A stretch of 64,000 nt of DNA, taken from an uncultured Actinomycetota bacterium. GTDB lineage: Bacteria > Actinomycetota > Acidimicrobiia > Spongiisociales > UBA4744. A model generated the notes under the pieces. It had not been told where the DNA came from, did no database searches, and saw nothing but the letters and a program-made list of their open reading frames with translations. Both the position numbers and the translations under genes were made by a program. The first letter of the stretch is position 1, and each line of letters begins with the position of its first letter. Shown one piece after another: positions 7,267 to 31,046 of this stretch. The stretch covers positions 578,714 through 642,713 of the forward strand of contig CAVPPF010000005.1 of NCBI GenBank assembly GCA_963707435.1. The letters are read 5' to 3'.

Positions 7267-8463
7267 TCAGCTCTCCAGGAAGGACTTCAGCTTGGCGATG
7301 CCTTCGTTGATCTCGTCTACGCCGATGCCGGAGTAGGCAAAGCGGATGTACTTCTCCGGTTCGCCCTGCTGGGCCCGGCCGAAGTGCAGCCTGGTCGTGA
7401 AGGACACTCCGGTGTTGTGGAGCACCGCCCGCCGGAACTCCTCGTAGTCCTGCATTCCCAGATTGGCCATCGCTTCGGTCACATTGGGGAAGAGGTAGAA
7501 GGTCGCGTTGGGCACATACGTACGGACCCCGGCGATCGAGTTGAGGCCGGCAGCCAGCACGTCCCGGCGTTCCTGCAGGGTGGTGAGGATGGCCTTGACT
7601 TCCGTCTGGTCGCCGGTGAGGCCGGCCACGGCGCCGTACTGGATGAAGTGGTTGGAGCAGGATTCGTCGTTGACATTGATCTTGGCGATCACGTCGACGA
7701 TCGGCTTGGGACCAATGCTGGCTCCCAGCCGCCAGCCCGTCATGGCGAATCTCTTCGAGAACGTATAGAGGATCACGGTGCGGTCCACCATGCCCGGCTG
7801 CTCGACGAATGACCGGCTCGTTCCCTCGTACCGCATGTCGAAATAGGCCTCATCGGCCAGGACGTACAGATCGTGGCGACGCGCCAGTTCGGCCAGCCGC
7901 TCATGCTCCGAAACCGAGCACTCGGCCCCCGTCGGGTTCTGCAGGTCGTTGATGATGAGCAAGCGGGTCTTGGGGGTGATCGCCCGCTCAATCGAGTCGA
8001 AGTCCAGACCGAAATTACGCTCCCCCTCCACGTACCCGTAGGGAACGGCCACGCCGCCATGGAACTCGATTTGTGATTCGTAGATCGGGTATCCCGGATT
8101 CGGGTAGAGCACCTCATCGCCAGGATTCATCAACGCGAGGATGAACTTGCCGATGGTCGGCTTGCCGCCCGGCTGGGCAACGACGTTCTCGGGTCCGTAG
8201 GCAACGTGGTGGGATGCAGACACGTCGGCGGCCAGCGCCTCGCGCAGCTGCGGGATACCGGCATTCGGGCAGTACCCGGTCTTCCCGTCCTTCAGCGCCT
8301 TCCAGCTGCCCTCCACCACCGTGGAGGGAGTGGCCAGGTCGAGATCCCCCAGGTGGAAGGGGTATACCTTGTTTCCCTCTGCGGCAAAGGCGTTGGCTTC
8401 ACCCGAAACGGCAAAGGCCGTCTCGGTTCCCAGTCGGGCAATACGGTCGGCAATGGTCACCAT
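7267..8463 (-). CDS. PLP-dependent class I/II aminotransferase
   Basis: GIPQLREALA, LQNPTG, LADEAY, TFSKRFAMTGWRLG (PLP Lys), YIRFAY. Confidence 0.93.
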   Translation of the reverse strand: MVTIADRIARLGTETAFAVSGEANAFAAEGNKVYPFHLGDLDLATPSTVVEGSWKALKDGKTGYCPNAGIPQLREALAADVSASHHVAYGPENVVAQPGGKPTIGKFILALMNPGDEVLYPNPGYPIYESQIEFHGGVAVPYGYVEGERNFGLDFDSIERAITPKTRLLIINDLQNPTGAECSVSEHERLAELARRHDLYVLADEAYFDMRYEGTSRSFVEQPGMVDRTVILYTFSKRFAMTGWRLGASIGPKPIVDVIAKINVNDESCSNHFIQYGAVAGLTGDQTEVKAILTTLQERRDVLAAGLNSIAGVRTYVPNATFYLFPNVTEAMANLGMQDYEEFRRAVLHNTGVSFTTRLHFGRAQQGEPEKYIRFAYSGIGVDEINEGIAKLKSFLES

Positions 8464-8472
8464 GGAGTTCTC

Positions 8473-9597
8473 CTATAAGTCTTCGGCGTTGACAATGCTG
8501 GGGGCGGCCCGCGGGATGTCTCCCGAGAGGAAGGGGGTGATGTCGTCGCCGTCCCAGACGGGATACCCCTGCAGTATGCCCGCAACGTTGGCGGCGGCCA
8601 GGCTGGACATCCCCTCTCGCGTCCACACGGTGGCCGAGGCGATATGCGGAACGACAACCACGTTGTCGAGTTCCGCCAGACCCGGCTTCATCGCCGGTTC
8701 GTCTTCGAAAACATCGAGGCCCACCCGGAACTCCGGGTTGTTCCGGCAGTGCTCGACCAGCGCCACCTCATCGATCACCGGACCGCGGCTCGAGTTCACG
8801 AGGACCGCATCTGGCTTCATGACCGCCAGCGCTTCGGCGTTGATCAGGTGGTGGGTACTGTCGTCCAAGACCGTGTGAAGACTGACGACGTCGGCTTCCC
8901 GCAGGACGTCCATCACCGAGTCCAGGCGCCGGCAGGTGAGCGGTCCCTCACCGCGGGCGACGAGGAAGGCGGAGTAGTCGGCGACGTACTGCTCGAGGGC
9001 CGGGTTCGGATAGAGGTCGTAGTAGACCAGATCCATCTTGTGCCCCTCGACCATCATGCGGGCGTAGGCACTCCCGATCCGGCCGGCGCCGATGACACCT
9101 ACCGTCGAGCCGACGAACCGCTTCCCCAGGAACATGGTGGGCAGCCAGCCCTTGTAGTGGCCGCCCCGCATGAAGCGATCGCCTTCGGTGACCCGCCGCC
9201 CGGCGGCAAACGTCAACGCAACAGCCATCTCGGCGGTCGTCTCCGTCAGGACACCCGGGGTGTTCCCGACGGGAATGCCGTTGGCGGTTGCTGCCGCGAC
9301 ATCGACGTTGTTGTAGCCGACGGCCCCGTTGCTGTAGGCCCTCCCTCCGGCTGCCGCCAGCGCTGCGAACAGGTCTGCGTTCCAGTCCTCGGTCAACTGA
9401 CCGATCACCCCGTCGCAGCGATCGCCGATCCGGGCGATGATTTCTTCGTTGGACAGCACAGCCGGGTCGGTGCAGATCTCAATCGAGCAGTCGGCAGATT
9501 GCAGAATCTGCTTCCAATGCTCGCCGGGCAGCGCCTTAGTCACAATGACCCGGCGGCTTCCTCCCGGATTGACGATGATCCATTCCTTCTCGGACAT
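8473..9597 (-). CDS. D-glycerate dehydrogenase / hydroxypyruvate-glyoxylate reductase (plant HPR1-like)
   Basis: CDGVIGQLTEDW, VGYNNVDV, GNTPGVLTETTAE, GVIGAGRIGSAYARMMVEG, NSSRGPVIDE, GLDVFEDEP, VPHIASA. Confidence 0.9.
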   Translation of the reverse strand: MSEKEWIIVNPGGSRRVIVTKALPGEHWKQILQSADCSIEICTDPAVLSNEEIIARIGDRCDGVIGQLTEDWNADLFAALAAAGGRAYSNGAVGYNNVDVAAATANGIPVGNTPGVLTETTAEMAVALTFAAGRRVTEGDRFMRGGHYKGWLPTMFLGKRFVGSTVGVIGAGRIGSAYARMMVEGHKMDLVYYDLYPNPALEQYVADYSAFLVARGEGPLTCRRLDSVMDVLREADVVSLHTVLDDSTHHLINAEALAVMKPDAVLVNSSRGPVIDEVALVEHCRNNPEFRVGLDVFEDEPAMKPGLAELDNVVVVPHIASATVWTREGMSSLAAANVAGILQGYPVWDGDDITPFLSGDIPRAAPSIVNAEDL

Positions 9598-9638
9598 GTG
9601 ATGTACCCCTTCTCTCACTCGGACCGGCGAAAGCTCCT

Positions 9639-10613
9639 CTACATGGTGAGCGCCATCACCGCCTTCTGCACGTGCAGACGGTTTTCGGCCTGGTCGAACA
9701 CCCGGCTCCAGCGCCCGTCGATGACGCCGTCGGTCACTTCGATGTTGCGGTCGGCCGGCAGCGGGTGCATGTAGATGGCATCCTCGTCGGCCAGTTCCAT
9801 GCGGCGCTCGTCGGCGATCCAGTCCTTGTACTTCTCGGAGATCTTGGCGGATTCCTCGTGGTCGGAGGTCGTCAGCATCGAGCCCCAGCTCTTGGCATAG
9901 ACAACGTCGGCACCCCGCATGCCTTCATCGAAGTCTTCGATGATCTCGAAGCTGCCGTGTGCCTTCTTGGCGTTCTCTTCGGCCTGAGCCACGATCTCGG
10001 GCATCAACTTGAACTCGGGAGGACGGGTCAACCGGACGTTCGCGCCGAAACGGGTCATGAGCAGGATGACGCTCTGCGGGACGCTGATCGGCTTCTGATA
10101 GCTCGCCGCATAGGCATAGCTCATATTGAAGGTCAGCTTGCGCGGATCGCCCTTTTGCTCGATGACGGTGAGCAGGTCGGCGAGGGCCTGAAACGGGTGG
10201 TACCAGTCGCATTGCATGTTGAGGACGGGCGTCCGGCTGGCCTCGGCAACTGCCCTGATGTAGTCGTTGCCGATTCCCCAGTCGACGTTGCGGATGGCGA
10301 TGCCGTCGTCGTAGCGACCCAGGATCTCGCCGATCTCCTTCCAGGTGTCGCCGTGGCCGATCTGAGTGCTGGTGCTGTCGAGGAACATGGCGTGGCCGCC
10401 CAACTGCGCCATGCCGGCTTCAAAGCTGGCCCGCGTCCGGGTGCTGGAGAAGAAGAAGAGCATCGCCAGTACCTTGTCCCGCAGCAACGCGTGCGGCTCG
10501 CCGAGCGCCCGCCTCCGCTTCAAGTCGAGAGCTACGTCGATGACGGTGTCGAGTTCGTCCTTGGTCCACTCCTGGGTGGTGATCATGTCCCGGCCGTGCA
10601 GGTATGTCTGCAT
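9639..10613 (-). CDS. YgeW-like (OTCase-superfamily) carbamoyltransferase
   Basis: SSTRTR, LNMQCDWYHPFQ, SYAYAASYQKPISVPQS (YgeW-type Pro-rich loop), YAKSW, HPLPADR. Confidence 0.8.
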   Translation of the reverse strand: MQTYLHGRDMITTQEWTKDELDTVIDVALDLKRRRALGEPHALLRDKVLAMLFFFSSTRTRASFEAGMAQLGGHAMFLDSTSTQIGHGDTWKEIGEILGRYDDGIAIRNVDWGIGNDYIRAVAEASRTPVLNMQCDWYHPFQALADLLTVIEQKGDPRKLTFNMSYAYAASYQKPISVPQSVILLMTRFGANVRLTRPPEFKLMPEIVAQAEENAKKAHGSFEIIEDFDEGMRGADVVYAKSWGSMLTTSDHEESAKISEKYKDWIADERRMELADEDAIYMHPLPADRNIEVTDGVIDGRWSRVFDQAENRLHVQKAVMALTM

Positions 10614-10626: not shown

Positions 10627-11358
10627 CTAGGCCCCGGCTTTCCGCCGGATCAGGCGGAAGCGGAGCAGGTCATCTCTGAAAAATGAGGTGGATTTCACCA
10701 CCGGTTCGTTGTCCTGGTCGAAGCCGACCTCCTCAAAACTGATCGATGGAGTACGACGCGGCACCTCGAGTTGCCCGGCCTCGTGGTTCCCCAACGCTAC
10801 CGGGACGATCTCCGAGAGGTAGTAGGAAAGAAATCGCGAGCAGTGATCCTCGAGCAACTCGTAGAGCGGCTTCTTGCCGTCGGCGGCTCCGATCCGCACT
10901 GCAACGAGTTGCTCCGGGATTCGGTTCGTGGTGAGCACCACGGGCAGATCGTTCTCGAGGAACAGCTTCTCCATGACCACCACCGGCTCGCCGCTCTCGA
11001 TCTTCAATTCGGCCGCCAATTGGTGGTCTGCTGCTTCTGTCCGGATCTTCTCGACCCGCACGGAGGGCGTATACCCGTGGTCCCGGAGCAACTCCTCGTA
11101 CGACCACATCTCCTCGAGACGTGACTTGATCTGCAAGCCGGGTTCGTTCACGAAGGTGCCCGCCCCCTGCTTGCGGTAGATGGAGCCTTCCTGCTCCAGG
11201 CGGCTCAGCGCATCGCGGATGGTGGTCCGGCTGACCCCCAGATCCGTTGCCAGTTCGGTCTCGGAAGGGATCCGTCCTGCTTCGAAGTCGCCGCCGACGA
11301 TCCGCTCTTTGAGATGTGCCTTCACCTGTTCGGTGAGCGACGGATTGCGGGTGATCAT
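10627..11358 (-). CDS. GntR/HutC-family transcriptional regulator (wHTH + UTRA)
   Basis: IPSETELATDLGVSRTTIRDALSRL...GAGTFV; UTRA-sized C-terminus; TAGGAT -10 lies 7 nt before the ATG (leaderless). Confidence 0.93.
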   Translation of the reverse strand: MITRNPSLTEQVKAHLKERIVGGDFEAGRIPSETELATDLGVSRTTIRDALSRLEQEGSIYRKQGAGTFVNEPGLQIKSRLEEMWSYEELLRDHGYTPSVRVEKIRTEAADHQLAAELKIESGEPVVVMEKLFLENDLPVVLTTNRIPEQLVAVRIGAADGKKPLYELLEDHCSRFLSYYLSEIVPVALGNHEAGQLEVPRRTPSISFEEVGFDQDNEPVVKSTSFFRDDLLRFRLIRRKAGA

Positions 11359-11498: not shown

Positions 11499-12449
11499 AT
11501 GCGCAGCTTCGCCGGACGGGACATTCTGTCGCTCAAGGATTTCGAGCGGAATGAGTTCTTCCACGTTTTCGAGATTGCCGACGAACTCGAGCCCATCGCC
11601 CGGGAACGTCGCAACACCGACCTGCTGGCCGACAAGACGATGGTCACCGCCTTCTACCAGCCCTCAACCCGCACCCGTCTGGCTCATGAGGCCGCCATGC
11701 ATCGCCTCGGCGGGCATGTCACCGGCTTCTCGGACGCCAAGATGACCCGGGCCGGAGACTTCTACCAGGAGTCCATCAAGGACACCGTCCACATGCTGGA
11801 GTACTACGGCGACGTGCTGGTCATGCGCCACTTCCAGCAGGGCGCCCCTCATGAGGCGGCTCGCTGGGCATCGATCCCGGTGATCAACGCCGGCGACGGG
11901 TGGGGCGAACATCCCACTCAGGTCCTCACCGACCTTTACACCGTGCAAAAGGAAACCGGCAGCGTGGACGGCAAGACGTTCGTCTGCATCGGCGACCACC
12001 GCATGCGCACCATGCACTCGATCGGATATGCCCTCAGCCAGTTCGACGCCGAGATGGTCATCCTGGCTCCCGAAGAGATGTCGCCCACGAAAGAGTTCCT
12101 GGCCGAACTCGACGAGAAGGGCACCTCGTGGCGCATCGTTGAGCACATCAACGACGTGATCGAAGAGGCCGACGTCATCTACATGGAACCGGTCGTCCAG
12201 CCCGACTACACGCAGTCGCGTCAGGAAAAGGCCGACGAGTACGGGACCACGCCCGCCAACTACCGGATCACCAAAGAGGTCATGAAGAAGGCCAAGGGTG
12301 ACTCGATCGTGCTGCACTCGCTTCCCCGGATGGACGAGCTGCTGCCCGAGGTGGACCAGCTCAAGCATGCCCGTTACTGGCAAGAGGCGTACAACGGCGT
12401 CGTCATGCGCATGGCACTGCTGGCGCTCGTTCTCGGCGTAACGGAGTAG
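11499..12449 (+). CDS. Atypical aspartate carbamoyltransferase-like enzyme
   Basis: FYQPSTRTR, INAGDGWGEHPTQ, HSLPR; aspartate-binding loops altered (YMEPVVQ in place of YMTRxQ). Confidence 0.85.
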   Translation: MRSFAGRDILSLKDFERNEFFHVFEIADELEPIARERRNTDLLADKTMVTAFYQPSTRTRLAHEAAMHRLGGHVTGFSDAKMTRAGDFYQESIKDTVHMLEYYGDVLVMRHFQQGAPHEAARWASIPVINAGDGWGEHPTQVLTDLYTVQKETGSVDGKTFVCIGDHRMRTMHSIGYALSQFDAEMVILAPEEMSPTKEFLAELDEKGTSWRIVEHINDVIEEADVIYMEPVVQPDYTQSRQEKADEYGTTPANYRITKEVMKKAKGDSIVLHSLPRMDELLPEVDQLKHARYWQEAYNGVVMRMALLALVLGVTE

Positions 12450-12452
12450 ACG

Positions 12453-13397
12453 ATGCCCAGAGCAGTCATCGCCATCGGCGGCAACTCGCTGATCACCGAC
12501 AAAGATCACCAGAGCGTCCAGGATCAGTACCTGGCCGCCGGTGAGACCGATCACCACATCGCCCAGATGGTCAAGGCCGGCTGGGACGTAGCGATCTCGC
12601 ACGGAAACGGTCCGCAAGTTGGATTCATCCTGCGCCGTTCTGAGCTGGCACGGGGCGAGCTGCATGAAGTGCCGCTCGACGTGTGCGGCGCCGACACACA
12701 GGGAGCGATCGGGTACATGCTCCAGCAGAACCTGATCAACGACTTCCGGGCCATGGGCCTGAACAAGCAGGTGGCGACCGTAGTCACCCAGGTCGAAGTC
12801 GGCGCCGACGATCCGGCCATGCTCAACCCGTCCAAGCCGATCGGCACCTTCTTCGACGAGGAAGAGGCCAAGGTTCGGCAGGAACGGGACGGCTGGGCGG
12901 TCGTCGAAGATGCCGGACGCGGCTGGCGCCGGGTAGTTGCGTCACCCAAACCGGTCCGGATCGTCGAGATCGAAGCCATCCGTACCCTGATGGATGCCGG
13001 GGTAATCGTCATCGCCGTCGGCGGGGGCGGCATACCCGTCGTGGCCGACGAGAACGGTGATCTGTACGGGGTCGCGGCCGTCATCGACAAGGACCTGGCT
13101 TCGGCCGTCCTGGCCAAAGACCTCAATGCGGACCTGCTGCTCATCTCCACGGCAGTCGAGAAAGTTGCGCTCCGGTTCGGAACTCCCGAACAAGAGTGGG
13201 TCGACCGCATGACCCTCTCCGAGTTGAAGGGGTACCTGGCGGAAGGCGGCCATTTCGCGGAAGGATCGATGGCACCCAAGATGCGGGCCGTCGTCCAGTT
13301 CCTCGAAGCAGGCGGCGAACGCGCCTTGATCACCAACCCGGAGAACATCGCCAAGGCCATCGCCGGCGACACCGGGACCTGGATCGTCCATGACTGA
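12453..13397 (+). CDS. arcC: Carbamate kinase
   Basis: IAIGGNSL, HGNGPQVG, GRGWRRVVASPKP, GGGGIPV, AVIDKD, GSMAPKM. Confidence 0.95.
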   Translation: MPRAVIAIGGNSLITDKDHQSVQDQYLAAGETDHHIAQMVKAGWDVAISHGNGPQVGFILRRSELARGELHEVPLDVCGADTQGAIGYMLQQNLINDFRAMGLNKQVATVVTQVEVGADDPAMLNPSKPIGTFFDEEEAKVRQERDGWAVVEDAGRGWRRVVASPKPVRIVEIEAIRTLMDAGVIVIAVGGGGIPVVADENGDLYGVAAVIDKDLASAVLAKDLNADLLLISTAVEKVALRFGTPEQEWVDRMTLSELKGYLAEGGHFAEGSMAPKMRAVVQFLEAGGERALITNPENIAKAIAGDTGTWIVHD

Positions 13398-14649: not shown

Positions 14650-14652
14650 AGA

Positions 14653-14682
14653 AGTACTCAGTACTCAGTACTCAGTACTCAG
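14653..14682. repeat. Heptamer tandem array (AGTACTC)x4
   Basis: Perfect AGTACTC at 14653, 14660, 14667 and 14674; intergenic. Confidence 0.95.
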
Positions 14683-21652: not shown

Positions 21653-22675
21653 TCATAGGCGGGCGTGCAGGCGGGCGGCTTGCTCGGCGGCTTTGGCGCG
21701 GATCTCGGCAGCATCGACCCTGGTGGGCTTGCCATCGGTGAAGACCACCTCGCCGTCGACCTTCACTTCCAGGGGCCGGACGCCCGGCGTGAACGCCAGG
21801 TGCCACGGATCCATCGGGTCGTACGACCACGTGACTTCGTCGTTGCGGGCCTCGGGCATGATGTCCCAGCCGGTCTCCAACCACGACCAGGCCTTGTCCG
21901 GTCCGCACGTGATATCGACGCTGCGCTGCATGACGTATGCCAGCCGGAAGGACTCAATGACGTTGGCACCAATGCCGTCCGTTCCCAACGCCACCGGGTT
22001 CTTGAACCGGGCCGGATTGGCATACCCAACGGCGTTGTTCAGGTTGGAGCGAGGGTTGTGCAGGATCGTTCCTCGCAAGGTGTGATCGGTGGGGAGATGC
22101 ACGCAGTGGCTCAGCAACCAGTTGTCCCGGGTCATGCCGTCGAGCCGTTGTGGAGCGTCGATATCACCGATTCCTTCGGCGACGTGAATGTGAACGCCCA
22201 CCCCGAGTTCCTCGGCAAGGCCGGCGGCAGCTTCCAGCGACTCATCGGTGCACGTGAAGGCCGCATGGATACCAACCAGCGCCTTGTTGCCTTCCTGAAC
22301 GAAGCGCCGGTTCTCCTCCAGGCCCCGCCGGGCACCGTCGGCCCCGTGCCGGTCGGTGATCCCGTAGGCGGGGAGAACCCGCACCCCGACCTCGGCACAT
22401 GCTTCGGCGATGACACTGAGGCTCCCCTCAATGGCGTTGGGAGATTCGTGATGATCGACGATGGCCGTCGTGCCCGACTCGAGCGCCTCGAGGGCACCAA
22501 GCATGGCGGACCAACGGATCATGTCCAGGTCGAGCGCGGTGTCCAGTCGCCACCAGATCTGCTCGAGGACCTCCTGGAAGTTGGTCGGGGTCTTGGGGGG
22601 CGGGGGCATACCGCGTGCCAGGGCCGAGTAGAGGTGGTGATGGGCGCAAACCAGGCCCGGTGTCGTGGCGGACAT
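21653..22675 (-). CDS. ssnA: SsnA-like amidohydrolase (short N-terminus)
   Basis: PGLVCAHHHLYSALARG, WWRLD, GTTAIVDHHESP, GIHAAFT, HIHVAEG, HNPRSNLNNAVG, LGTDG. Confidence 0.82.
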   Translation of the reverse strand: MSATTPGLVCAHHHLYSALARGMPPPPKTPTNFQEVLEQIWWRLDTALDLDMIRWSAMLGALEALESGTTAIVDHHESPNAIEGSLSVIAEACAEVGVRVLPAYGITDRHGADGARRGLEENRRFVQEGNKALVGIHAAFTCTDESLEAAAGLAEELGVGVHIHVAEGIGDIDAPQRLDGMTRDNWLLSHCVHLPTDHTLRGTILHNPRSNLNNAVGYANPARFKNPVALGTDGIGANVIESFRLAYVMQRSVDITCGPDKAWSWLETGWDIMPEARNDEVTWSYDPMDPWHLAFTPGVRPLEVKVDGEVVFTDGKPTRVDAAEIRAKAAEQAARLHARL

Positions 22676-22717: not shown

Positions 22718-25306
22718 TCATGCTCGTTTTTCGATGGGTTGGTGGATGGACATCGGGAGGCGGTTGCGCCATCGGCCGTCCACCTCGTGGAAGGCGGCCG
22801 CCACCGCACCCGCCGTCGGGACCAGGCCGATCTCACCGACCCCCTTGATCCCGTAGGGGGCACCGGGTTGCGGGGCCTCCACCAGGTGCACCTCGATCTC
22901 CGGGATGTCCTTGGCGCGCAAGATGCCCAGGCTCCGGAGGGTCATGTTGGTCGGCATCCCGGCGTCGTCCGTCGGGAACTCTTCGGAGAGGGCGTACCCG
23001 AGCCCCATGTGGACCGCGCCCTGGACCTGGCCCTCGCACAGAGTCGGGTTGACCACCCGCCCCACATCGTGGACGGCAACGACCTTGTCGATCGTGCCCG
23101 TTTCAGGATCGGCGATCACCAGCTGGGCCGCGTACCCAAACGTCGAATGGATGATCGGGTTCTCCACCCCATCTTCGAGGGAGTTGGTCCAGTCGACCCG
23201 GTACTCGCCGTAGTAGTCGACGCCGGGACGGCACTCGTTCTCGAGAGCCACATGACAGGCGGCTTTGACGCCACCTGCTCCCATCAGCGTGCCTCGCGAG
23301 CCGGTCGTCTGACCGGCCCCCAGTTCCCGGGTGGTGTCGACCACGACCCGGACCCGTTCGGGAGCTATGCCCAGTTCCTCCACGGCCACCTGCAGAGCCA
23401 CGGTATGGATCCCCTGGCCCATCTCCGTCCAGCAGTGTCGGACCTCGACGGTGCCGTCCTCTTCAAACCGCACCACCGCACCGGAGATCTCCTTGAAACC
23501 GTTGCCGAGCCCGGAGTTCTTGATTCCCATCCCGAGCCCGACCGCCTTGCCTGCCGCCCGGGCCCCGTCGTAGGCGTCTTTGATGGCATCCAGGCACAGG
23601 CGGGCTCCCCGGCTGCCCTCGTCCATGATTTGTCCGGGACCCCACACATCTCCGGGCTCCACCACGTTGCGGGACCGGATCTCCCAGCCGCTGATGCCCA
23701 CCTTTTCGGCCAGGCGATCGAGCAGCCCCTCCGTGGCGAACTGAGCCTGATTGGCACCGAAACCGCGAAAGGCGCCGCACACCGGGTTGTTCGTGCGGGC
23801 GGCGGTCGCCTCGACGTCGATGGTGGGGAACACATACGGACCGCTGGCGTGGCCGGCCGCCCGCTCCAGCACCTTCATCCCCACCGAAGCGTAGGGACCG
23901 CTGTCGCCGACCATACGGGCCCGCAAGGCGGTGAGTTTGCCGTCGGCGTCACAACCGGCGGTTGCCTCGATCCGGATGGGGTGCCGCTTGGCGTGCATCA
24001 GTAGGGATTGCTCCCGGGTCAGCGTGCACTTGACCGGCCGTCCCAGCAGGTGGGCAGCGAGCGCCGTCTGCGCCTGGTTGGACATGTCTTCCTTGCCGCC
24101 GAAGGCACCGCCGTTAGAAACCAGCTCCACGACGACATCGTCGTTGGAGATTGCCAGAACCTCTGCGATCTGATTGCGGTCGTCCCATACGCCCTGGCCA
24201 CCGGAATACACCATCATCGGTCCGTCGTCGTTCGGCACGGCCAGGGTCGATTCGGGTTCGAGGAAGGCGTGTTCGACGCGCGGGGTCAGGAAGGTCTCCT
24301 CGACCGTGAAGGCCGAGCCGGCTAGAGCAGCATCGACGTCCCCGCGGGCATAGACCGAGCGGGACAGAACGTTGCCGTCCAGCCCCCATACGGCATCTTC
24401 CTCCGAGGCCAGCGCGGAGTCGGCATCGACAAAGGGCGAGTGCACGACGTATTCCACTTCCACCTTCTCGGCCGCGGCCCGTGCCTGGGCCACCGACTCG
24501 GCGACGACGATCGCCAGGACATCGCCGAGGTACGAGGTGCGACCTCCCACCGGGATGAAGACGGGCCAGTCCCGGTGAATGATCCCAACTTTGAGCTCAC
24601 CGGGGACATCCGCCCCGGTGTACACGGCGACCACGCCGTCCATGGCCAGCGCCGCGGCCGTGTCGATAGAGACGACATCCGCCCGGGCATGGTCGGCCAG
24701 GCGCAGCGCACCATGCAGCATGCCGTCGACCCGCATGTCATCGACGTATCCTCGATCGCCGAGCGCCAGGCCGACTGCCTCATACTTGGAACCGCGCGAC
24801 CCGAGCCCGCCGAGCGGTTCGAGTTCCGGAATCGCGTCGTCGCGCAGCATCTCGATCGCCTCGAAGATCTTGGTGTATCCGGTGCAGCGGCACAGGTGTG
24901 CGCCCAACCGGCCCGCGGCCGTCTCGATGGTCAGGTCGCTGCCCTTCTGGTCGAGCAGGGCTTTCGTCCGGACGAGTATGCCGGGGGTGCAGAAGCCGCA
25001 CTGGAGGGCGCCCGCTGCGGCGAAGGCGGTCGCGAGCCGGTCACGGTCGTTCTGATCGAATCCTTCGAGGGTCGTAACCGTCTTGCCCTCAGCCTTCTCC
25101 ATCGGGACGAGACAGCTCTGGATGGCTTTGCCGTCCAGGAGCACGGTGCAGGCACCACATTGGCCCGACGGCGAACAGCCGTCCTTTGGGGACGTGATAC
25201 CCAGTTCCTCGCGCAACGCAGCCAACAGATGGGGGTGATCGGCTGCTACCGAAACCGGGCGGCCATTCACCACGAACGAACTGATTCCCGGAGTCGTTAG
25301 CGTCAT
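22718..25306 (-). CDS. Molybdenum hydroxylase with fused 2Fe-2S + Moco subunits (Se-dependent xanthine dehydrogenase type)
   Basis: KDGCSPSGQCGACTV, QCGFCTPG, LCRCTGY, EHAFLEPE, GGAFGGKED, AFRGFG, EMGQG, KGVGE; ATG 25306 after GAGAGGG. Confidence 0.9.
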   Translation of the reverse strand: MTLTTPGISSFVVNGRPVSVAADHPHLLAALREELGITSPKDGCSPSGQCGACTVLLDGKAIQSCLVPMEKAEGKTVTTLEGFDQNDRDRLATAFAAAGALQCGFCTPGILVRTKALLDQKGSDLTIETAAGRLGAHLCRCTGYTKIFEAIEMLRDDAIPELEPLGGLGSRGSKYEAVGLALGDRGYVDDMRVDGMLHGALRLADHARADVVSIDTAAALAMDGVVAVYTGADVPGELKVGIIHRDWPVFIPVGGRTSYLGDVLAIVVAESVAQARAAAEKVEVEYVVHSPFVDADSALASEEDAVWGLDGNVLSRSVYARGDVDAALAGSAFTVEETFLTPRVEHAFLEPESTLAVPNDDGPMMVYSGGQGVWDDRNQIAEVLAISNDDVVVELVSNGGAFGGKEDMSNQAQTALAAHLLGRPVKCTLTREQSLLMHAKRHPIRIEATAGCDADGKLTALRARMVGDSGPYASVGMKVLERAAGHASGPYVFPTIDVEATAARTNNPVCGAFRGFGANQAQFATEGLLDRLAEKVGISGWEIRSRNVVEPGDVWGPGQIMDEGSRGARLCLDAIKDAYDGARAAGKAVGLGMGIKNSGLGNGFKEISGAVVRFEEDGTVEVRHCWTEMGQGIHTVALQVAVEELGIAPERVRVVVDTTRELGAGQTTGSRGTLMGAGGVKAACHVALENECRPGVDYYGEYRVDWTNSLEDGVENPIIHSTFGYAAQLVIADPETGTIDKVVAVHDVGRVVNPTLCEGQVQGAVHMGLGYALSEEFPTDDAGMPTNMTLRSLGILRAKDIPEIEVHLVEAPQPGAPYGIKGVGEIGLVPTAGAVAAAFHEVDGRWRNRLPMSIHQPIEKRA

Positions 25307-25380
25307 GTCACACCCTCTCAATAGAGCCGGTTCTACGCAACCGTAGAGCGATCGCCCGGTGGTGTCATCTTGAGGTCGAT

Positions 25381-25477: not shown

Positions 25478-25720
25478 GTGTCGTGCCGAGCGGAGTTCAC
25501 GATCGAGCCGTTCGAGGAAGGCTCTCCCGGTCGCCACGTCATGGCTGCCGTCGAGGCCGTTCGGGCCCTTGGTTTCGAACCCGAGCTGGGTCCTTTCGGG
25601 ACGTCCGTCGAAGGTGAACCTGCCCGGGTCATCGACGCAATCAGGGCGATGCTCGCCACCGTCGGCACGTCCGGGGCCTCCCGGATCACGCTGCACATCG
25701 ATCTGGACTATCAGCCATGA
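25478..25720 (+). CDS. Thiamine-binding/DUF77 (YkoF-like) small protein
   Basis: AEFTIEPF...ELGPFGTSVEGE pattern; SD GAGGAG; ATGA overlap with the next gene. Confidence 0.75.
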   Translation: MSCRAEFTIEPFEEGSPGRHVMAAVEAVRALGFEPELGPFGTSVEGEPARVIDAIRAMLATVGTSGASRITLHIDLDYQP

Positions 25721-26085
25721 CCGTTGCGACGACCCACCCTGTTCTGGTCGCCATCCAGCCACTCCTCGATGCCGTCGGCGGGACGATCATCCCGGCCGGT
25801 GGGCTCGACGCGGGCGACGTCCCCATCTCCTGGGAAGGGGAGGTGATCGGCGGTGTCCGACTGGACTCGCTTTCCGGGGCCCTCGAGCGGTTGGTTGCCA
25901 ACATCGAGGACGAGCTGGGTGGAAAGCTCGTGGACCTCCCCAGGAAGGAAAAACAGGCTGCCGTCCGCATGCTCGACGAACGGGGAGCGTTCTTCTTGAG
26001 AAAAGCAATCGAAGAAGTCGCCGCCATGATGGGAGTCAGCCGGATCACCATCTACAACTACCTGAACGTGATCAGGAATGATTGA
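25717..26085 (+). CDS. YheO-type C-terminal HTH (HTH_22) regulator
   Basis: RKEKQAAVRMLDERGAFFLRKAIEEVAAMMGVSRITIYNYL. Confidence 0.85.
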   Translation: MTVATTHPVLVAIQPLLDAVGGTIIPAGGLDAGDVPISWEGEVIGGVRLDSLSGALERLVANIEDELGGKLVDLPRKEKQAAVRMLDERGAFFLRKAIEEVAAMMGVSRITIYNYLNVIRND

Positions 26086-26177: not shown

Positions 26178-27353
26178 GTGACTAGCGCGGTAGAGCAGCG
26201 TCGAAGCAAGTCGAGGTACCTTGCGTTCTTGATCCCGGTCGGTTCCGTCCTCGCGGCCCTCCTCATCGGAGCGATCATGCTGGTCGCGCTGGGTGCCAAC
26301 CCACTCGAGGGCTTCCGCGAGTTATTCAACGGGGCGTTCGGAAGCACCGACGCCCTCATCTCGACCGCTTTGAAGGCCACGCCTCTTCTGTTTGTTGGTG
26401 TGGGCATCACCATCGCCTTCCGGGCCAACGTCATCAACATCGGCGGGGAGGGCCAGATGGTGGCCGGTGGGCTCCTCGCTACGGTGGTAGCCCTGACCTT
26501 GCCCGACCTCTCCGCCTGGATCATGTTGCCGGCCGTTCTGATCGCCGGGCTGATCGGCGGAGCAGCCTGGGGAGCAGTGCCCGGAGCCCTCAAGGCCTAC
26601 TTCGGAGTCAACGAAATCCTCAGCACGATCATGCTCAACGTCGTCGCCGTGCAGCTCATGAACTATTTGCTCCGGGGACCCCTCATCGACCCGGGTGAGA
26701 TTGAACGCGGCACGCGAATCCCCCAGACGGCCCGGCTTCAGGAAGGGGCCGATCTACCGCTTCTGTTCGGGGATGGCCGCTTCCACATTGGACCGCTGCT
26801 GGCTGTACTGGTTGCCGTTGCGGCCTACATCCTCCTGTGGCGAACGCCCCTCGGATACCGGGTACGAGCGGTCGGATTGAACCCGGATGCCTCCAAATAC
26901 GCCGGCATCCCGGTCAAGCGGACCATCGTCCTTGCTCTGACGCTCAGCGGCGCAATGTGTGGACTCGCCGGGGCAGTGCTGGTCTTCGGGAGCGAGAGCC
27001 ACCGGATGGTCACCGACGGTTCCACGGCCGGATTCACCGGCAGCGCCGGATTCAACGGCATCGTCGCCGCCCTCTTCGGAGGACTCCATCCCATCTGGAC
27101 GATTCCTGCTTCCTTCCTGTTCGGCGGCCTCCTCGTCGGCGGCCTCGCCTTACAGCGAGCCGTGCAGGTGCCGTCGGCCCTGATCCTTGCCCTGAACGGC
27201 TTGGTCGTGGTGTTCGTGGTAGCGACCGACCGCTACCGCAAGCGCATGCTGGCCAGGGATGCCCGGGTGGACGCGCCGGAACCGCTTGCCCCTCCGTCGA
27301 GTTCTCCCCCGACAAATGGACCCGCGCCTCCTGGTGAAGGAGACTCCTCGTGA
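26178..27353 (+). CDS. Nucleoside/purine ABC transporter permease
   Basis: INIGGEGQ, GVNEILSTIMLN, RAVGLNPDASKYAGI, GFNGIVAALFG. Confidence 0.92.
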   Translation: MTSAVEQRRSKSRYLAFLIPVGSVLAALLIGAIMLVALGANPLEGFRELFNGAFGSTDALISTALKATPLLFVGVGITIAFRANVINIGGEGQMVAGGLLATVVALTLPDLSAWIMLPAVLIAGLIGGAAWGAVPGALKAYFGVNEILSTIMLNVVAVQLMNYLLRGPLIDPGEIERGTRIPQTARLQEGADLPLLFGDGRFHIGPLLAVLVAVAAYILLWRTPLGYRVRAVGLNPDASKYAGIPVKRTIVLALTLSGAMCGLAGAVLVFGSESHRMVTDGSTAGFTGSAGFNGIVAALFGGLHPIWTIPASFLFGGLLVGGLALQRAVQVPSALILALNGLVVVFVVATDRYRKRMLARDARVDAPEPLAPPSSSPPTNGPAPPGEGDSS

Positions 27354-28282
27354 GCGATTTCTTCACCACGGCCGTACTGGTCGCCACCGCCGCCTCCGGC
27401 ATCCGCCTCGCCGTCCCGCTGCTGTTTGCTTCCCTCGGCGAGACCTTCGGGCAGCGCAGTGGTGTGCTCAACCTCGGTGTCGACGGCATCATGCTGCTCG
27501 GGGCGTTCGGCGGCTACTACGCGGTGCTGCAGACGGGTAGCGTCTGGCTGGGGCTGCTGGTCGGAATAGCGGTCGGGCTCCTGCTCGGCCTGATCTCGGC
27601 GGTGATCTCCGTCACCCTGAAGGCCGAACAGGGCATCAGCGGTATCGGTATCTACCTGTTCGGGCTCGGCATGAGCGACCTCTTGTTCCAGAAACTGGTC
27701 GGTACCCCCCTGCCAATCACGAAATTCCCCAAATTGAACATCCCGGTTCTCAGCGACATCCCCATCATCGGCGAATTGCTCTTCCAACACAGCGTGGTCG
27801 TCTACCTGGCTTTCCTGGCCGTCCCGATCAGCATGTACATCATCAACAAGACCACCTTCGGGATGAACATCCGGGCGGTGGGCGAAAACCCGGAGGCTGC
27901 CGACAGTCTCGGGGTCAGCGTGAACCGGGTCCGCTATGCCACCGTCACGATCGGCGGCACACTGGCCGGTGTGGCCGGGGCCGCCCTGGCCATCGACCTC
28001 GGCATCTTCCAGCAGAACCTGACCAACGCCGCCGGGTTCATCGCAATTGCCCTCGTGTATTTCGGGGCATGGCGCCCGATCGGCGTGATGCTCGGATCAC
28101 TGCTGTACGGGTTCGTCAACGCGATCGTGCTGCAGCTCAAGACCCTGTCCATCATCCCGCCGGACTTGTCGAACTTCGCGGCCATGGCGCCCGCCATCTT
28201 TACGATTCTGGCGCTCGTGATTGTCGCCCGTCGCTTCAAGGCGCCGGCAGCACTCACGAAGCCCTACTCACGAGGAGAATGA
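27350..28282 (+). CDS. Nucleoside/purine ABC transporter permease
   Basis: LGETFGQRSGVLNLGVDG, RAVGENPEAADSLGVSV, GFIAIALVYFGAWRP. Confidence 0.92.
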   Translation: MSDFFTTAVLVATAASGIRLAVPLLFASLGETFGQRSGVLNLGVDGIMLLGAFGGYYAVLQTGSVWLGLLVGIAVGLLLGLISAVISVTLKAEQGISGIGIYLFGLGMSDLLFQKLVGTPLPITKFPKLNIPVLSDIPIIGELLFQHSVVVYLAFLAVPISMYIINKTTFGMNIRAVGENPEAADSLGVSVNRVRYATVTIGGTLAGVAGAALAIDLGIFQQNLTNAAGFIAIALVYFGAWRPIGVMLGSLLYGFVNAIVLQLKTLSIIPPDLSNFAAMAPAIFTILALVIVARRFKAPAALTKPYSRGE

Positions 28283-28318
28283 GCAAGGACCAGACGGTCC
28301 CCACAACGAGGAGGAACA

Positions 28319-29383
28319 TTGAAAAAGCACAGAATGACCTGGCTGATCTTGGTATTGGCGCTGGCACTGGTTGCCGCGGCTTGCGGCGATACGGCCGATG
28401 AAGAAACGACCACAACCGCCGCATCCGGCGAGACGACGACCACTGCGGCGTCGGGTGAGACCACCACGACGGGTGCGGCCGCAGAGGCCTTCCGTATCGC
28501 CATCGTGGCGCCGTCGGCACAGAATGACCTCGCATTCACTCAGTCGATCGTCGACGCCGTCAATGTGATCAAGGGTGAGATGGGGTTGGCGGATAGCGAT
28601 ATTCAGATCACCGACGGCACGTTCGTCGTTGAGGATGCCGCCGCCGCCATCCGCGCCTACGCCGCCGACGGCGTGGATCTGGTCATCGCTCACGGATCCC
28701 AGTACGGAGGTTCACTCCAGGAAATCGCCCCGGATTTCCCGGACACGTCCTTCGCCTGGGGTACGGCAGCAGACACGTTCGGGTTGGACAACGTCTTCTC
28801 CTACGAAGCGGCCTCCGACGAGGGTGGCTATGTGATGGGCGTCATGGCGGCAGCTCTGAGTGAGAGCGGCACGATTGGCATCGTCGGACCCGTCGAGGTA
28901 GGCGACGCGAAGCTCTATGTCGACGGATTCAAGGCGGGTGTGCTCGCCCAGGATCCCGGCGCCAACGTATTGGTCAACTACACGGACTCGTTCAGCGACG
29001 TAGCCCTCGCCTCGGAAGCTGCCCAGGCTTTCGCCGCCAACGGAGCAGACGTGATGTCGGGGACGGCTCAGATGGTCGTCGGAGCGGTGACCGTCGCCAG
29101 CGACACCGACATCCTGTGGTTCGGGACCCAGGCCAATCAGACCAGCCTGGCGCCGAGCATCGTCGTGGCGTCTCAGGTCTACCACTGGGAAGTTGTCCTG
29201 CGTGACATCGTCTCCAAGATCCAGGCCGGAACGCTCGGCGGTGAGATCTACGTGATCGATCTGGCCAATGGTGGCGAAGTGATCGAGTACAACGACGCAT
29301 TCGCGCTTCCTGCCGACGTCAGACAGCTTGGGGACGACACCGTTGCCGGCATCATCGACGGATCGATCACGACCGGCGGCTAG
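28319..29383 (+). CDS. BMP/PnrA-family substrate-binding lipoprotein
   Basis: TTG start after GAGGAGG; lipobox AAAC; Thr-rich linker; DLVIAHG and EGGYVMGVMAA. Confidence 0.9.
   Translation: MKKHRMTWLILVLALALVAAACGDTADEETTTTAASGETTTTAASGETTTTGAAAEAFRIAIVAPSAQNDLAFTQSIVDAVNVIKGEMGLADSDIQITDGTFVVEDAAAAIRAYAADGVDLVIAHGSQYGGSLQEIAPDFPDTSFAWGTAADTFGLDNVFSYEAASDEGGYVMGVMAAALSESGTIGIVGPVEVGDAKLYVDGFKAGVLAQDPGANVLVNYTDSFSDVALASEAAQAFAANGADVMSGTAQMVVGAVTVASDTDILWFGTQANQTSLAPSIVVASQVYHWEVVLRDIVSKIQAGTLGGEIYVIDLANGGEVIEYNDAFALPADVRQLGDDTVAGIIDGSITTGG
28403..28471 (+). repeat. Imperfect 27-bp coding repeat (ETTTTAASG)
   Basis: ETTTTAASG-ETTTTAASG-ETTTT after the lipobox. Confidence 0.8.
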
Positions 29384-29418
29384 GAGGAAGTGTGAGGAGC
29401 GGCTGCGAGAAGGACTGT

Positions 29419-29446
29419 CGTACTTTGTACTTCGTACCTGGTACCG
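29419..29446. repeat. Degenerate heptamer array with GTAC core (4 units)
   Basis: CGTACTT TGTACTT CGTACCT GGTACCG. Confidence 0.75.
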
Positions 29447-29468
29447 CGACCTCAATCGTGGCAGTCGA

Positions 29469-29494
29469 CCGGGGCGGGCGGCCGCTCGCCCCGG
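29469..29494 (+). terminator. GC-rich hairpin after the binding-protein gene (mRNA stabiliser or partial terminator)
   Basis: CCGGGGCGGGCG/CGCTCGCCCCGG inverted repeat. Confidence 0.5.
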
Positions 29495-29516
29495 CTCACA
29501 ACCATGAGGTGGCAGT

Positions 29517-31046
29517 GTGAGCGAAACGCCGATGCTGGAGATGCGGGCGATCACCAAGCGGTTCCCCGGTGTCCTGGCCAACGACCGGGTCGACTTCGAC
29601 GTGATGGCCGGGGAAGTCCACACGCTGCTGGGTGAGAACGGGGCGGGCAAGAGCACCCTCATGAAGATCCTCTACGGGCTCTATCGCCAGGATGAGGGCG
29701 AAATCCTGCTGAACGGTTCTCCGGTTGAGATCCATAGCCCCACCGATGCGATCGACTTGAACATCGGCATGATCCATCAGCACTTCATGATGGTGGAGAG
29801 CCTGACCGTGGCCGAGAACGTGGCGCTCGGGCTGCCATCGAACCGGGGGTTCCGAACCGATCTTGACGCCGTTTCCGAAAGGATCACGGAACTCGGGTCG
29901 CGTTACGGCCTCAAGATCGATCCGAGTGCCACCGTCTGGCAGCTGTCGGTCGGTCAGAAACAGCGGGTGGAGATCATCAAGGCGCTCTACCGCAATGCCA
30001 ACCTGCTGATCCTCGATGAACCGACCGCCGTGCTGACCCCGCAAGAAGTGGACCAACTCTTTGCGACCCTCCGGCAAATGACGGCCGACGGTCGAGGCTT
30101 GATCTTCATCTCCCACAAGCTGCACGAAGTGCTCGCCCTCAGCGATCGCATAACCGTGCTGCGGCAGGGCCGCAAAACGGGTGAGGTACCGGTTGAGGGA
30201 GCAACCAGGGAAAGCCTCGCCCGGATGATGGTCGGGCGGGAAGTCAAGCTGGCACCGGACAAGCCGGAGGTCGAAACCGGGCGGGCGCGGCTCCGCATCG
30301 AAGGTCTGACCGTGCTGGGCGATCGAGGAGACGAGGCAGTCCGCGGCCTCAATCTGGAAGTCAAGGCGGGGGAAATTCTTGGACTGGCCGGCGTGTCCGG
30401 CAATGGCCAGCGCGAGATGGCCGAAACCATCGGTGGTCTTCGCTCACCGACCTCTGGATCGATCTTCATCGATGACGTCGACGTAGCCGGCAAGCTTCCC
30501 ATCGAGATCCGGCAAGCCGGTCTCTCCTACGTGCCCGAAGGACGCATGAAGAACGGCTGCATCGGCGAGTTCACGATTTCCGAGAACCTCCTGTTGGTCG
30601 ATCACAAGGACCCCCGTTTCGTGAAGAGGGGTCTGTTTGATTTTGGCGCCATCAAGGAGCATTCGGCTCAATTGGTCAAGGAGTATGCGGTCAAGACGCC
30701 GACCCTGGAGACCACCGCCCGCAGCCTGTCGGGTGGGAACATCCAGAAAGTGATTCTGGCGCGAGAGATCTCGGGGACGCCCAAGGTGCTGCTGGCATCC
30801 CAGCCCACCCGTGGTGTGGATATCGGAGCCGCCGAGTACATCCACAAACGTCTGGTCGGTCAGCGCGAAGCAGGCACCGCCATCCTGGTGATCTCTGAGG
30901 ACCTCGACGAGGTATTCGGGCTTTCCGATCGTATCGCGGTCATCTATGAGGGACAGATCATGGGCATCGTGGATCCGGCTACCACGAGCCGCGAGGAGAT
31001 CGGGTTGATGATGGCCGGCGTCCGACCGGAGTCTGCTGCAAGCTGA
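29517..31046 (+). CDS. Sugar/nucleoside ABC transporter ATP-binding protein (two NBDs)
   Basis: GENGAGKST, LSVGQKQRVEI, LILDEPT, LSGGNIQK. Confidence 0.95.
   Translation: MSETPMLEMRAITKRFPGVLANDRVDFDVMAGEVHTLLGENGAGKSTLMKILYGLYRQDEGEILLNGSPVEIHSPTDAIDLNIGMIHQHFMMVESLTVAENVALGLPSNRGFRTDLDAVSERITELGSRYGLKIDPSATVWQLSVGQKQRVEIIKALYRNANLLILDEPTAVLTPQEVDQLFATLRQMTADGRGLIFISHKLHEVLALSDRITVLRQGRKTGEVPVEGATRESLARMMVGREVKLAPDKPEVETGRARLRIEGLTVLGDRGDEAVRGLNLEVKAGEILGLAGVSGNGQREMAETIGGLRSPTSGSIFIDDVDVAGKLPIEIRQAGLSYVPEGRMKNGCIGEFTISENLLLVDHKDPRFVKRGLFDFGAIKEHSAQLVKEYAVKTPTLETTARSLSGGNIQKVILAREISGTPKVLLASQPTRGVDIGAAEYIHKRLVGQREAGTAILVISEDLDEVFGLSDRIAVIYEGQIMGIVDPATTSREEIGLMMAGVRPESAAS

Follow-up and report, generated by a model that had tools for sequence, protein, structure and literature searches.

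We evaluated a 64,000-nt stretch of DNA (the window; G000:C5:578714-642713, where G000 is this genome and C4, C5, C6 and C7 are contigs of it) from a 3.2 Mb, 64% GC bacterial genome, and found that the gene cluster between 7.3 and 31 kb of the window probably represents a variant of the reductive urate pathway, in which both ureido groups come off as carbamoyl phosphate and a threonine-synthase-like pyridoxal phosphate (PLP) enzyme, here called ThrCL, does the job of DpaL. The pathway as such is known and the upper half is as published; it is the second half that is new and undescribed. An earlier, sequence-only reading of the same DNA had proposed that the lower half differs from the published pathway, and this is sustained by a core of two carbamoyltransferases, by ThrCL together with a cysteine-synthase-like enzyme (CysKL), and by the absence of YgeY. 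Its attribution of the DNA to a likely actinobacterium also stands, the near-identical proteins being named Acidimicrobiia.

It was not until 2025 that the reductive urate pathway was elucidated, in gut bacteria; according to the main texts of the two reports it runs from urate via 2,8-dioxopurine, its dihydro form, ureidomethyl-hydantoin, 2,3-diureidopropionate, a mono-ureido acid and 2,3-diaminopropionate to pyruvate (Li et al. 2025, PMC12507026; Liu et al. 2025, 10.1101/2025.04.24.650524). The enzymes described there for E. coli, C. sporogenes and C. difficile are XdhD or XdhAC, YgfK or UacX, SsnA, HyuA, YgeW or UacY, YgeY, YgeX (DpaL) and YqeA (PMC12507026; 10.1101/2025.04.24.650524), and the ATP gained by YgeW together with carbamate kinase has been established experimentally (Liu et al., 10.1101/2025.04.24.650524).

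Using the open reading frame (ORF) list, a coding-frame check and family models, we resolved the cluster into four compact units. Unit 1 (minus strand) holds a GntR/UTRA regulator, an ornithine carbamoyltransferase (OTC)-like gene (OTCL), a 2-hydroxyacid dehydrogenase and an aminotransferase, with gaps of 9-20 nt; unit 2, which diverges from unit 1 on the plus strand, holds an aspartate carbamoyltransferase (ATCase)-like gene (ATCL), carbamate kinase, ThrCL, CysKL, NADP-type GdhA and a 130-aa protein, with gaps of -8 to 55 nt; unit 3 (minus strand) holds an Xdh 2Fe-2S/Mo fusion, a 340-aa SsnA-type amidohydrolase (SsnAL) and YgfK; and unit 4 (plus strand) holds an HTH_22 regulator and a BMP-type ABC importer. 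Assigning gene identities with Pfam and NCBIfam models and their curated bit-score cut-offs, we recovered in place every gene that the sequence-only reading had named (the Xdh fusion, ssnA-like gene, ygfK, carbamate kinase, importer, two carbamoyltransferases, two PLP enzymes, aminotransferase, reductase and GdhA), with Xdh, YgfK and carbamate kinase passing their cut-offs and the SsnA-like gene falling below its own. The enzymes that carry the argument are the following.

9639..10613, minus strand: OTCL, OTC-like carbamoyltransferase, 324 aa (OTC models, 265 bits with cut-off 306 and 252 bits with cut-off 281)
11499..12449, plus strand: ATCL, ATCase-like carbamoyltransferase, 316 aa (TIGR00670, 267 bits, cut-off 237, passed)
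12453..13397, plus strand: carbamate kinase, ATP from carbamoyl phosphate, 314 aa (TIGR00746, 377 bits, cut-off 358)
13390..14649, plus strand: ThrCL, threonine-synthase-like PLP enzyme, 419 aa (PRK08197, 296 bits, cut-off 303)
14705..16168, plus strand: CysKL, CysK-fold PLP enzyme with N- and C-terminal helical extensions, 487 aa (cysK model, 75.8 bits, below the cut-off of 351)
18063..21623, minus strand: YgfK, reductase for 2,8-dioxopurine, 1186 aa (TIGR03315, 892 bits, cut-off 835.3)
21653..22675, minus strand: SsnAL, short SsnA-type amidohydrolase, 340 aa (SsnA models, 260 and 247 bits, cut-offs 444 and 455)
22718..25321, minus strand: Xdh fusion of 2Fe-2S and Mo domains, selenium-dependent type, 867 aa (TIGR03311, 832 bits, cut-off 830.45)

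ATCL, OTCL and ThrCL are extra paralogs, with PyrB, an ArgF-like gene and ThrC encoded elsewhere in G000, and all three carry altered active-site segments. ATCL is 31-34% identical to the PyrB of G000 (C7:412686, beside a PyrC-like match), and in 22 of 22 orthologs its TR.QKER segment reads EPVVQ and its KGES loop reads TRAGDFYQES, with a three-residue insertion, the carbamoyl-phosphate motifs being retained; the standard TR.QKER (as TRIQKER) and KGES forms are found in the solved ATCase 1ml4, in G000 PyrB and in a second canonical paralog. From structural work on E. coli ATCase, we take the Arg and Gln of TR.QKER and the KGES loop to bind the aspartate side-chain carboxylate. OTCL had been labelled YgeW-like, a label we revise: its score on the YgeW model is 190 bits where the cut-off is 453, and it scores highest on an OTC subfamily model; it is therefore OTC-like and not YgeW. 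Nor does it qualify as ornithine carbamoyltransferase, both OTC scores lying under cut-off and the ornithine motifs being changed: across 37 orthologs the carbamoyl-phosphate motif is retained, the ornithine motif reads AKSWGxM against DVWASMG in the G000 ArgF, and HCLP has become HPLP in most of them, the references being the ArgF-like gene (C7:435705) and the solved OTC 1pvv. By their motifs, then, ATCL is predicted to be without the residues that bind the aspartate beta-carboxylate and OTCL without those that bind the ornithine moiety. The carbamate kinase is single-copy in G000, and OTCL lies directly before the carbamate kinase gene in most other mapped loci.

ThrCL falls outside threonine synthase by two measures, a score under cut-off and the replacement of a motif arginine. 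Among 61 ThrCL sequences (that of G000 included) the most frequent forms have Met or Thr in place of the arginine of NPxR(I/L)EG, which is kept in 4 solved ThrCs and in the separate ThrC of G000 (C4:185563); the PLP motifs of ThrCL are intact. This arginine presumably binds the substrate phosphate in threonine synthase, and ThrCL appears to have lost it. CysKL is the most conserved member of the module (77% mean column identity over 17 sequences from several phyla), and its PLP lysine K107 and Asn loop are conserved. In its AF2 model (pLDDT 93), helical extensions of about 100 residues on either side flank a CysK-type core; the best PDB folds (CysK, beta-cyanoalanine synthase and CBS) match this core alone, and the terminal extensions were without partner. 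The predicted fold suggests that a beta-substituted alanine, for instance albizziin or diaminopropionate, undergoes beta-elimination or beta-replacement. The family comprises 357 clusters at 50% identity (E<=1e-30), and a look-up in the ESM Atlas returned generic 'PLP-dependent enzyme' clusters only. A complex prediction for CysKL with ThrCL returned a score of 0.00 ('no answer') and was used neither for nor against any reading. Four cysteines of CysKL (C114, C140, C152 and C277) are invariant in the 17 sequences.

For the upper half, SsnA is the best-matching family for SsnAL, residues 5-263 of which align to profile positions 58-340. Aligned with SsnAs of 425-466 aa, SsnAL lacks about 55 residues at the N terminus as well as three internal segments, whereas the His and Asp positions (including the HxH at the start) are invariant in this alignment; there is a stop codon in frame upstream of the SsnAL start. 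The Xdh fusion has no FAD subunit adjacent to it, FAD-binding Xdh subunits occurring on C7 only in a search of the genome; YqeB (304 bits) and SelD (383 bits) are encoded elsewhere in G000. The SelD match (C4:101808-102737) contains one in-frame TGA, as expected of a selenocysteine-containing selenophosphate synthetase, and C7:338695-349200 carries a second Xdh-family gene group, in which the YqeB maturation gene sits between two FAD-binding subunits.

In the scheme that follows, we infer all substrates, the sequence in which the steps occur and the amount of ATP gained. The BMP-type importer would bring the purine in, the Xdh fusion would convert urate to 2,8-dioxopurine, YgfK would dearomatise it and the short SsnA would open the ring, as published. 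OTCL, in the place of YgeW, would phosphorolyse the 3-ureido group of 2,3-diureidopropionate, and ATCL, substituting for the hydrolase YgeY, would do the same to the alpha (2-)ureido group. The single carbamate kinase would convert both carbamoyl phosphates to ATP, so that two ATP per urate rather than one would follow if both ureido groups do yield carbamoyl phosphate for the kinase. ThrCL would take 2,3-diaminopropionate to pyruvate and ammonia, and CysKL would catalyse a further reaction on a beta-substituted alanine.

We assessed conservation of the cluster within the order over 41 genomes including G000, with 20 stretches from 14 genomes mapped; many of the genomes surveyed are incomplete metagenome-assembled genomes, and the tallies include the unpublished G023 and G034 (2 of the 8 genomes negative for both SsnAL and CysKL), on which alone we base no claim. 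SsnAL occurs in 33 of the 41, and a CysKL ortholog in 31 of these 33 and in 0 of the 8 SsnAL-negative genomes. OTCL was found in 26/41 and ATCL (at least 74% identity) in 25/41, the two always adjacent where mapped. Gene order is the same as in the window in G001, whereas two stretches from other genera (L018, L020) carry everything in one co-directional string, SsnAL-YgfK-ATCL-OTCL-carbamate kinase-ThrCL-CysKL; another (L024) has the module upstream of SsnAL (ATCL-OTCL-carbamate kinase-ThrCL-CysKL-SsnAL-YgfK), and L019 and L022 have a permuted order with an ABC importer inserted. The conserved core is ATCL, OTCL, carbamate kinase, ThrCL and CysKL. The sequence-only reading would have been refuted by a lack of conservation of the 7.3-18 kb block next to ssnA, ygfK and xdh; the two-transferase core does lie there in many genomes, and its linkage to ssnA and ygfK is kept in rearranged orders across genera and phyla.

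A sister lineage (G020, G028, G030, G031) has Xdh-SsnAL with a short reductase that matches the first 400 residues of YgfK only, and in its mapped stretches ATCL, OTCL and the kinase are absent, with two CN-hydrolase genes in their place beside Xdh-SsnAL; G028 and G020 retain ThrCL-CysKL, and G031 carries a DpaL-like gene in the cluster. DpaL itself occurs in 6 of the 41 genomes (above cut-off in G000, G007, G009 and G029) and is lacking from most cluster-bearing genomes. G009 and G029, both with DpaL, are the only two SsnAL-positive genomes without CysKL. A second ATCase-like gene (38-41% identity) near the cluster in G029, and one in L052, were considered as ATCL and rejected, all canonical ATCase segments being kept. 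In G029, which has DpaL and no CysKL, OTCL or ATCL, this canonical-type gene (L033:1728-2639) adjoins the ABC importer-Xdh-SsnAL-YgfK cluster, with a similar arrangement in L052.

Beyond the order, a species-genome scan for CysKL gave 594 relatives, of which the best 80 loci (63-78% identical) were used with flanks of up to 10 kb. These fall in at least 6 phyla, including Chloroflexota (mostly Anaerolineae), Desulfobacterota, Bacillota, Synergistaceae, Atribacterota, Bipolaricaulota, SAR324, Terriglobia and others. Within the flanks of the 80 loci we found ThrCL in 53, a dihydropyrimidinase-like gene in 33, the kinase in 33, OTCL (at least 60% identity) in 28, Xdh in 24, ATCL in 18, SsnA in 16, an M20-family gene (the family of YgeY) in 15 and DpaL in 3. 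Three alternations emerged, namely ATCL against YgeY (M20), OTCL against YgeW and ThrCL against DpaL. Among the 28 OTCL loci, 16 have ATCL without M20, 7 have M20 without ATCL, a single locus holds the two together and another 4 are truncated at the edge, so that the exclusivity of the ATCase-like gene and ygeY anticipated by the sequence-only reading largely holds, with one locus breaking it. Upstream of OTCL lies ATCL in 16 loci and M20 in 6, and in L052 the M20 gene is accompanied by an ATCase of canonical type on the opposite strand. A YgeW-type transferase (31-37% identity to OTCL, ~400 aa) occurs in 8 loci; none of these contains ATCL, and M20 is in view in 4/8, with YgeY lying just upstream of the locus in L102. 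ThrCL and DpaL never share a locus.

In whole-genome checks, YgeY, ThrCL and CysKL were present and DpaL nowhere to be found in the cultured Vallitalea maricola (L108), in a SAR324 genome and in one from Desulfobacteraceae, and a complete Anaerolineaceae chromosome (L083) has ATCL, OTCL, ThrCL and CysKL with YgeY and DpaL absent. The typical Anaerolineae order is ATCL-OTCL-carbamate kinase-importer-ThrCL-(GT2)-CysKL-(209-aa protein)-dihydropyrimidinase, and in L083 this string, from ATCL to the dihydropyrimidinase, is followed by SsnA and an F420 LLM oxidoreductase, SsnA lying 2 genes downstream, which fits a variant that Li et al. 2025 (PMC12507026) mention for Chloroflexota. Straight after that SsnA, L083:15841-20658 encodes the LLM oxidoreductase and F420 genes (an Fno-like oxidoreductase, CofE and CofD). 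The (GT2) of the typical order is a GT2-family glycosyltransferase between ThrCL and CysKL, and conserved 209-aa and 516-aa proteins without a Pfam family flank the dihydropyrimidinase (L046:8962-9960, 11664-12293 and 13743-15293, with homologs in ~30 Anaerolineae loci).

The sequence-only reading had also stated that hyuA, ygeY and dpaL are missing from the window, and whole-genome family searches gave no above-cut-off match to any of the three inside C5:578714-642713; extended to the genome, the statement survives for ygeY alone (best match 67.7 bits against a cut-off of 321.5) and fails for dpaL and for a hyuA-type dihydropyrimidinase. HyuA as a hidden gene of the window or cluster was rejected after the genome-wide family search and annotation of the remaining window ORFs. 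The sole dihydropyrimidinase/hydantoinase of G000 (553 bits) is on C6 in an operon resembling pyrimidine catabolism (G000:C6:309966-316092, corresponding to L015:6967-13093) with a CN-hydrolase, a class-III aminotransferase, methylmalonate-semialdehyde dehydrogenase and a TIGR03842 F420-dependent LLM oxidoreductase; classical dihydropyrimidine dehydrogenase is absent among its five annotated genes, and the sister lineage carries orthologs of its CN-hydrolase (71-76%) inside the urate cluster. A search of 11 SsnAL- and CysKL-positive relatives gave no hydantoinase-family gene at E<=1e-60, and of five relatives searched again, 4 have a PyrC-like best match (beside PyrB where mapped) and G038 has nothing. 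The second ring may be opened by the short SsnA or else by an enzyme not yet recognised as such.

Several observations weigh against our interpretation. A canonical DpaL exists in G000 outside the cluster (C5:542438-543763; 535 bits, cut-off 276), 36 kb upstream of the window and beside an MFS transporter rather than purine genes, and because of it ThrCL is not needed in G000 for the DpaL step. The hydantoinase family is also absent at the above threshold from 8 full-cluster relatives that are 92-99% complete, and because it is missing there the published ureidomethyl-hydantoin route could not be completed as described. One locus (L081) has both M20 and ATCL, 15 of the 80 CysKL loci lack any module gene in the available flank (5 of these with full 10-kb flanks), and related genomes are non-independent samples. 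Li et al., moreover, place YgeW on the 2-ureido group (PMC12507026), the reverse of the regiochemistry proposed here. Finally, CysKL occurs together with YgeY, YgeW, HyuA and DpaL in one Bacillota cluster (L102; YgeY-YgeW-carbamate kinase-SsnA-YgfK-Xdh-HyuA-CysKL-DpaL), which amounts to the full published set plus CysKL with no ThrCL in the locus. The notion that CysKL stands in place of YgeY or DpaL is thereby contradicted, and we rejected it as a one-for-one substitute of YgeY, HyuA or DpaL; since it co-occurs with every canonical enzyme, the complete set included, we regard it as an additional step.

Other explanations of the cluster were weighed. One, which we judge unlikely, is that the lower steps in G000 are carried out by unlinked canonical genes (the C6 dihydropyrimidinase as HyuA and the DpaL at C5:542438), and that ThrCL and CysKL with the aminotransferase, reductase and GdhA constitute a salvage or detoxification branch that takes albizziin or diaminopropionate to serine, cysteine or glycerate and assimilates the ammonia, rather than a replacement for DpaL. 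The strong scores of both unlinked genes are in its favor, as are the beta-replacement enzyme fold of CysKL, its occurrence with DpaL in three Bacillota loci, and the location of the aminotransferase, reductase and GdhA in the same tight operons (gaps of at most 53 nt), GdhA being of NADP type and single-copy in G000. However, DpaL is rare in the order, the three genomes from other phyla that combine ThrCL and CysKL with YgeY lack it too, the G000 copy has no purine genes for neighbors, and next to the module in other genomes the aminotransferase, reductase and GdhA turned up in G001 and L036 only. It is very improbable that the 7.3-18 kb block is an unrelated neighbor, a carbamoyl phosphate pathway of arginine/citrulline or pyrimidine type that lies beside the urate genes by chance. 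OTC with carbamate kinase is the arginine deiminase pattern, ATCL passes the ATCase model and OTC is the best-scoring family for OTCL, but housekeeping PyrB and ArgF-like genes are present elsewhere in G000, the aspartate- and ornithine-binding residues are altered, arginine deiminase is absent among the annotated window genes, and linkage to ssnA and ygfK persists through rearranged orders across genera and phyla.

We also consider it improbable that the ATCL-OTCL-carbamate kinase-ThrCL-CysKL module degrades some other imported cyclic ureide or ureido amino acid, with its own BMP-type transporter, and lies beside urate genes only sometimes. SsnA or Xdh is in the flank of only 30 of the 80 loci, and many Anaerolineae loci (for example L046, L055, L062 and L073) pair the module with an ABC importer and a dihydropyrimidinase-like gene while neither SsnA nor Xdh lies within 10 kb; flanks were, however, limited to that distance, and the complete Anaerolineaceae chromosome does have SsnA close downstream of the module. 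The operon fusion of the module with SsnAL-YgfK in several genera and the tracking of SsnAL by CysKL within the order (31/33 versus 0/8) also argue for a role in urate degradation, and urate yields exactly two ureido groups on one three-carbon skeleton (Li et al., PMC12507026).

Taking the reductive urate variant as the preferred reading, the comparison favors the regiochemistry of Liu et al. (YgeW on the 3-ureido and YgeY on the 2-ureido group; 10.1101/2025.04.24.650524) over that of Li et al., because an ATCase-type enzyme, of alpha-amino specificity, alternates with YgeY and an OTC-type enzyme, of distal-amino specificity, alternates with YgeW, an argument from family chemistry. Commentary on the 2025 work lists the order of ureido cleavage and its stereochemistry as still open questions, and the alternation of an ATCase-derived enzyme with YgeY would thus supply independent comparative evidence that the YgeY substrate carries an alpha-N-carbamoyl group. 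More broadly, the lower half would be modular, with each ureido group removable either by a transferase, which conserves the energy, or by a hydrolase. The variant lower half is widespread in environmental anaerobes and may double the ATP gain. Going further, we tentatively suggest a form of environmental reductive uricolysis, spread over Acidimicrobiia, Chloroflexota, Desulfobacterota and others, that would yield two ATP per urate, use a ThrC-derived lyase for DpaL, include CysKL as an overlooked ninth step and, in Acidimicrobiia, open the second ring without a hydantoinase, with the ATCL/YgeY alternation settling the regiochemistry (YgeY alpha-ureido, YgeW 3-ureido); this whole we hold as possible rather than likely.

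A variant with two ATP gained would be of interest for engineering urate-degrading probiotics. The CysKL and ThrCL families are abundant and conserved. Li et al. noted SsnA in Actinomycetota and Chloroflexota and scored its neighbors by PF00185 and PF00291 only (PMC12507026); such broad families cannot tell these enzymes from YgeW and YgeX, and environmental clusters may therefore have been mis-assigned. The main texts of Li et al. and Liu et al. make no mention of a cysteine-synthase-like or threonine-synthase-like enzyme (the supplements, where gene-neighborhood tables might list them, were outside the search), and the Liu et al. preprint makes no mention of aspartate carbamoyltransferase (10.1101/2025.04.24.650524). 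The two-transferase variant is not described in the titles and abstracts found by a full-text literature search.

The remaining genes of the cluster are these.

7267..8463, minus strand: class I/II aminotransferase, 398 aa, last gene of the unit GntR-OTCL-reductase-aminotransferase (PF00155, 178 bits; no NCBIfam model at cut-off)
8473..9618, minus strand: D-2-hydroxyacid dehydrogenase, glyoxylate/hydroxypyruvate-reductase-like, 381 aa (PF02826, PF00389; glyoxylate reductase model, 231 bits, cut-off 455)
10627..11358, minus strand: GntR/UTRA (HutC-type) regulator, divergent from the ATCL operon (PF00392, PF07702)
16222..17565, plus strand: GdhA, NADP-specific glutamate dehydrogenase, in the CysKL operon (PRK09414, 747 bits, cut-off 536)
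17578..17970, plus strand: 130-aa protein at the end of the plus-strand unit (no Pfam or NCBIfam match)
25717..26085, plus strand: small HTH_22 (YheO-like) regulator (PF13309, 63.5 bits)
26178..31046, plus strand: BMP/PnrA-type ABC importer of two permeases, binding protein and ATPase (PF02653 twice, PF02608, PF00005)

The aminotransferase, which is separated from the upstream reductase gene by 9 nt, the reductase and GdhA had been counted by the sequence-only reading as part of a replacement pathway. Among the loci examined, the first two lie beside the core solely in the same-genus G001 and the close relative L036, and GdhA is in this position solely in G000 and G001, which does not bear that claim out; roles in ammonia assimilation and in handling the three-carbon product are plausible for them. 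The 130-aa protein is 85% identical in G001. As for regulation and transport, the HTH_22 regulator is kept beside Xdh in G001, G028, G030 and G031, GntR/UTRA homologs flank the module in 11/80 loci, and a BMP-type transporter is inside the module in 18-24 of the 80.

The remaining large ORFs of the window are genes unrelated to the cluster. Window positions 357-2744 hold a 795-aa ORF without a Pfam family and, on the opposite strand of the same stretch, a 1228-aa ORF. Past the cluster (31048-33537 and 37501-40781) lie an O-succinylhomoserine sulfhydrylase-like gene, diaminopimelate decarboxylase, hisG, hisD and an aminotransferase, with transporters and Mrp-antiporter subunits farther beyond the hisG/hisD region. 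Sequence words of the window occur in metagenome runs of at least 14 studies, with the labels sediment, estuary, marine and soil, and two of the matching runs contain contigs that are 90-99% similar throughout the region. In one study, two metatranscriptome runs gave contigs, most of them 90-97% similar, that cover parts of the reductase, OTCL, GntR, ATCL, kinase, ThrCL, CysKL and GdhA genes; metatranscriptome libraries can contain DNA and contigs cannot rank genes, so we make no claim on expression from these runs.

Comparing the cluster with known systems, it shares with the gut reductive urate pathway an Xdh fusion of selenium type that, like C. sporogenes XdhAC, has no FAD subunit, along with YgfK, an SsnA-type amidohydrolase, carbamate kinase, a purine-type importer and a carbamoyltransferase beside the kinase. 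It differs in that YgeW, YgeY and HyuA are absent from the cluster, an ATCase-derived transferase stands where YgeY would act, ThrCL and CysKL are present with no linked DpaL, and SsnA is only 340 aa long; the host is an Acidimicrobiia bacterium with near-identical DNA in sediment metagenomes, whereas the published pathway is from gut anaerobes. CysKL resembles the O-acetylserine sulfhydrylase/beta-substituted alanine synthase family (CysK, beta-cyanoalanine synthase, CBS, O-ureido-L-serine synthase; TM-score 0.79-0.88, target-normalised), with the PLP lysine and Asn loop in common, and differs from it in its 20-27% identity, its terminal extensions and its place in purine-degradation clusters. 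The arginine deiminase pathway, with its catabolic OTC and carbamate kinase, follows the same logic of omega-ureido phosphorolysis and then substrate-level phosphorylation, an analogy drawn by Liu et al. (10.1101/2025.04.24.650524), but OTCL is without the ornithine-binding motif of the G000 ArgF-like gene and has no arginine deiminase among the annotated genes around it. In the C. difficile variant, as described in the main text of Li et al. (PMC12507026), the hydrolase UacY replaces YgeW and YqeA, which likewise shows hydrolytic and phosphorolytic removal of ureido groups being swapped between lineages. C. difficile is thus fully hydrolytic, with no ATP at the ureido steps, whereas the cluster described here is proposed to be fully phosphorolytic, and the sister lineage with its two CN-hydrolases would represent a third, again hydrolytic, solution.

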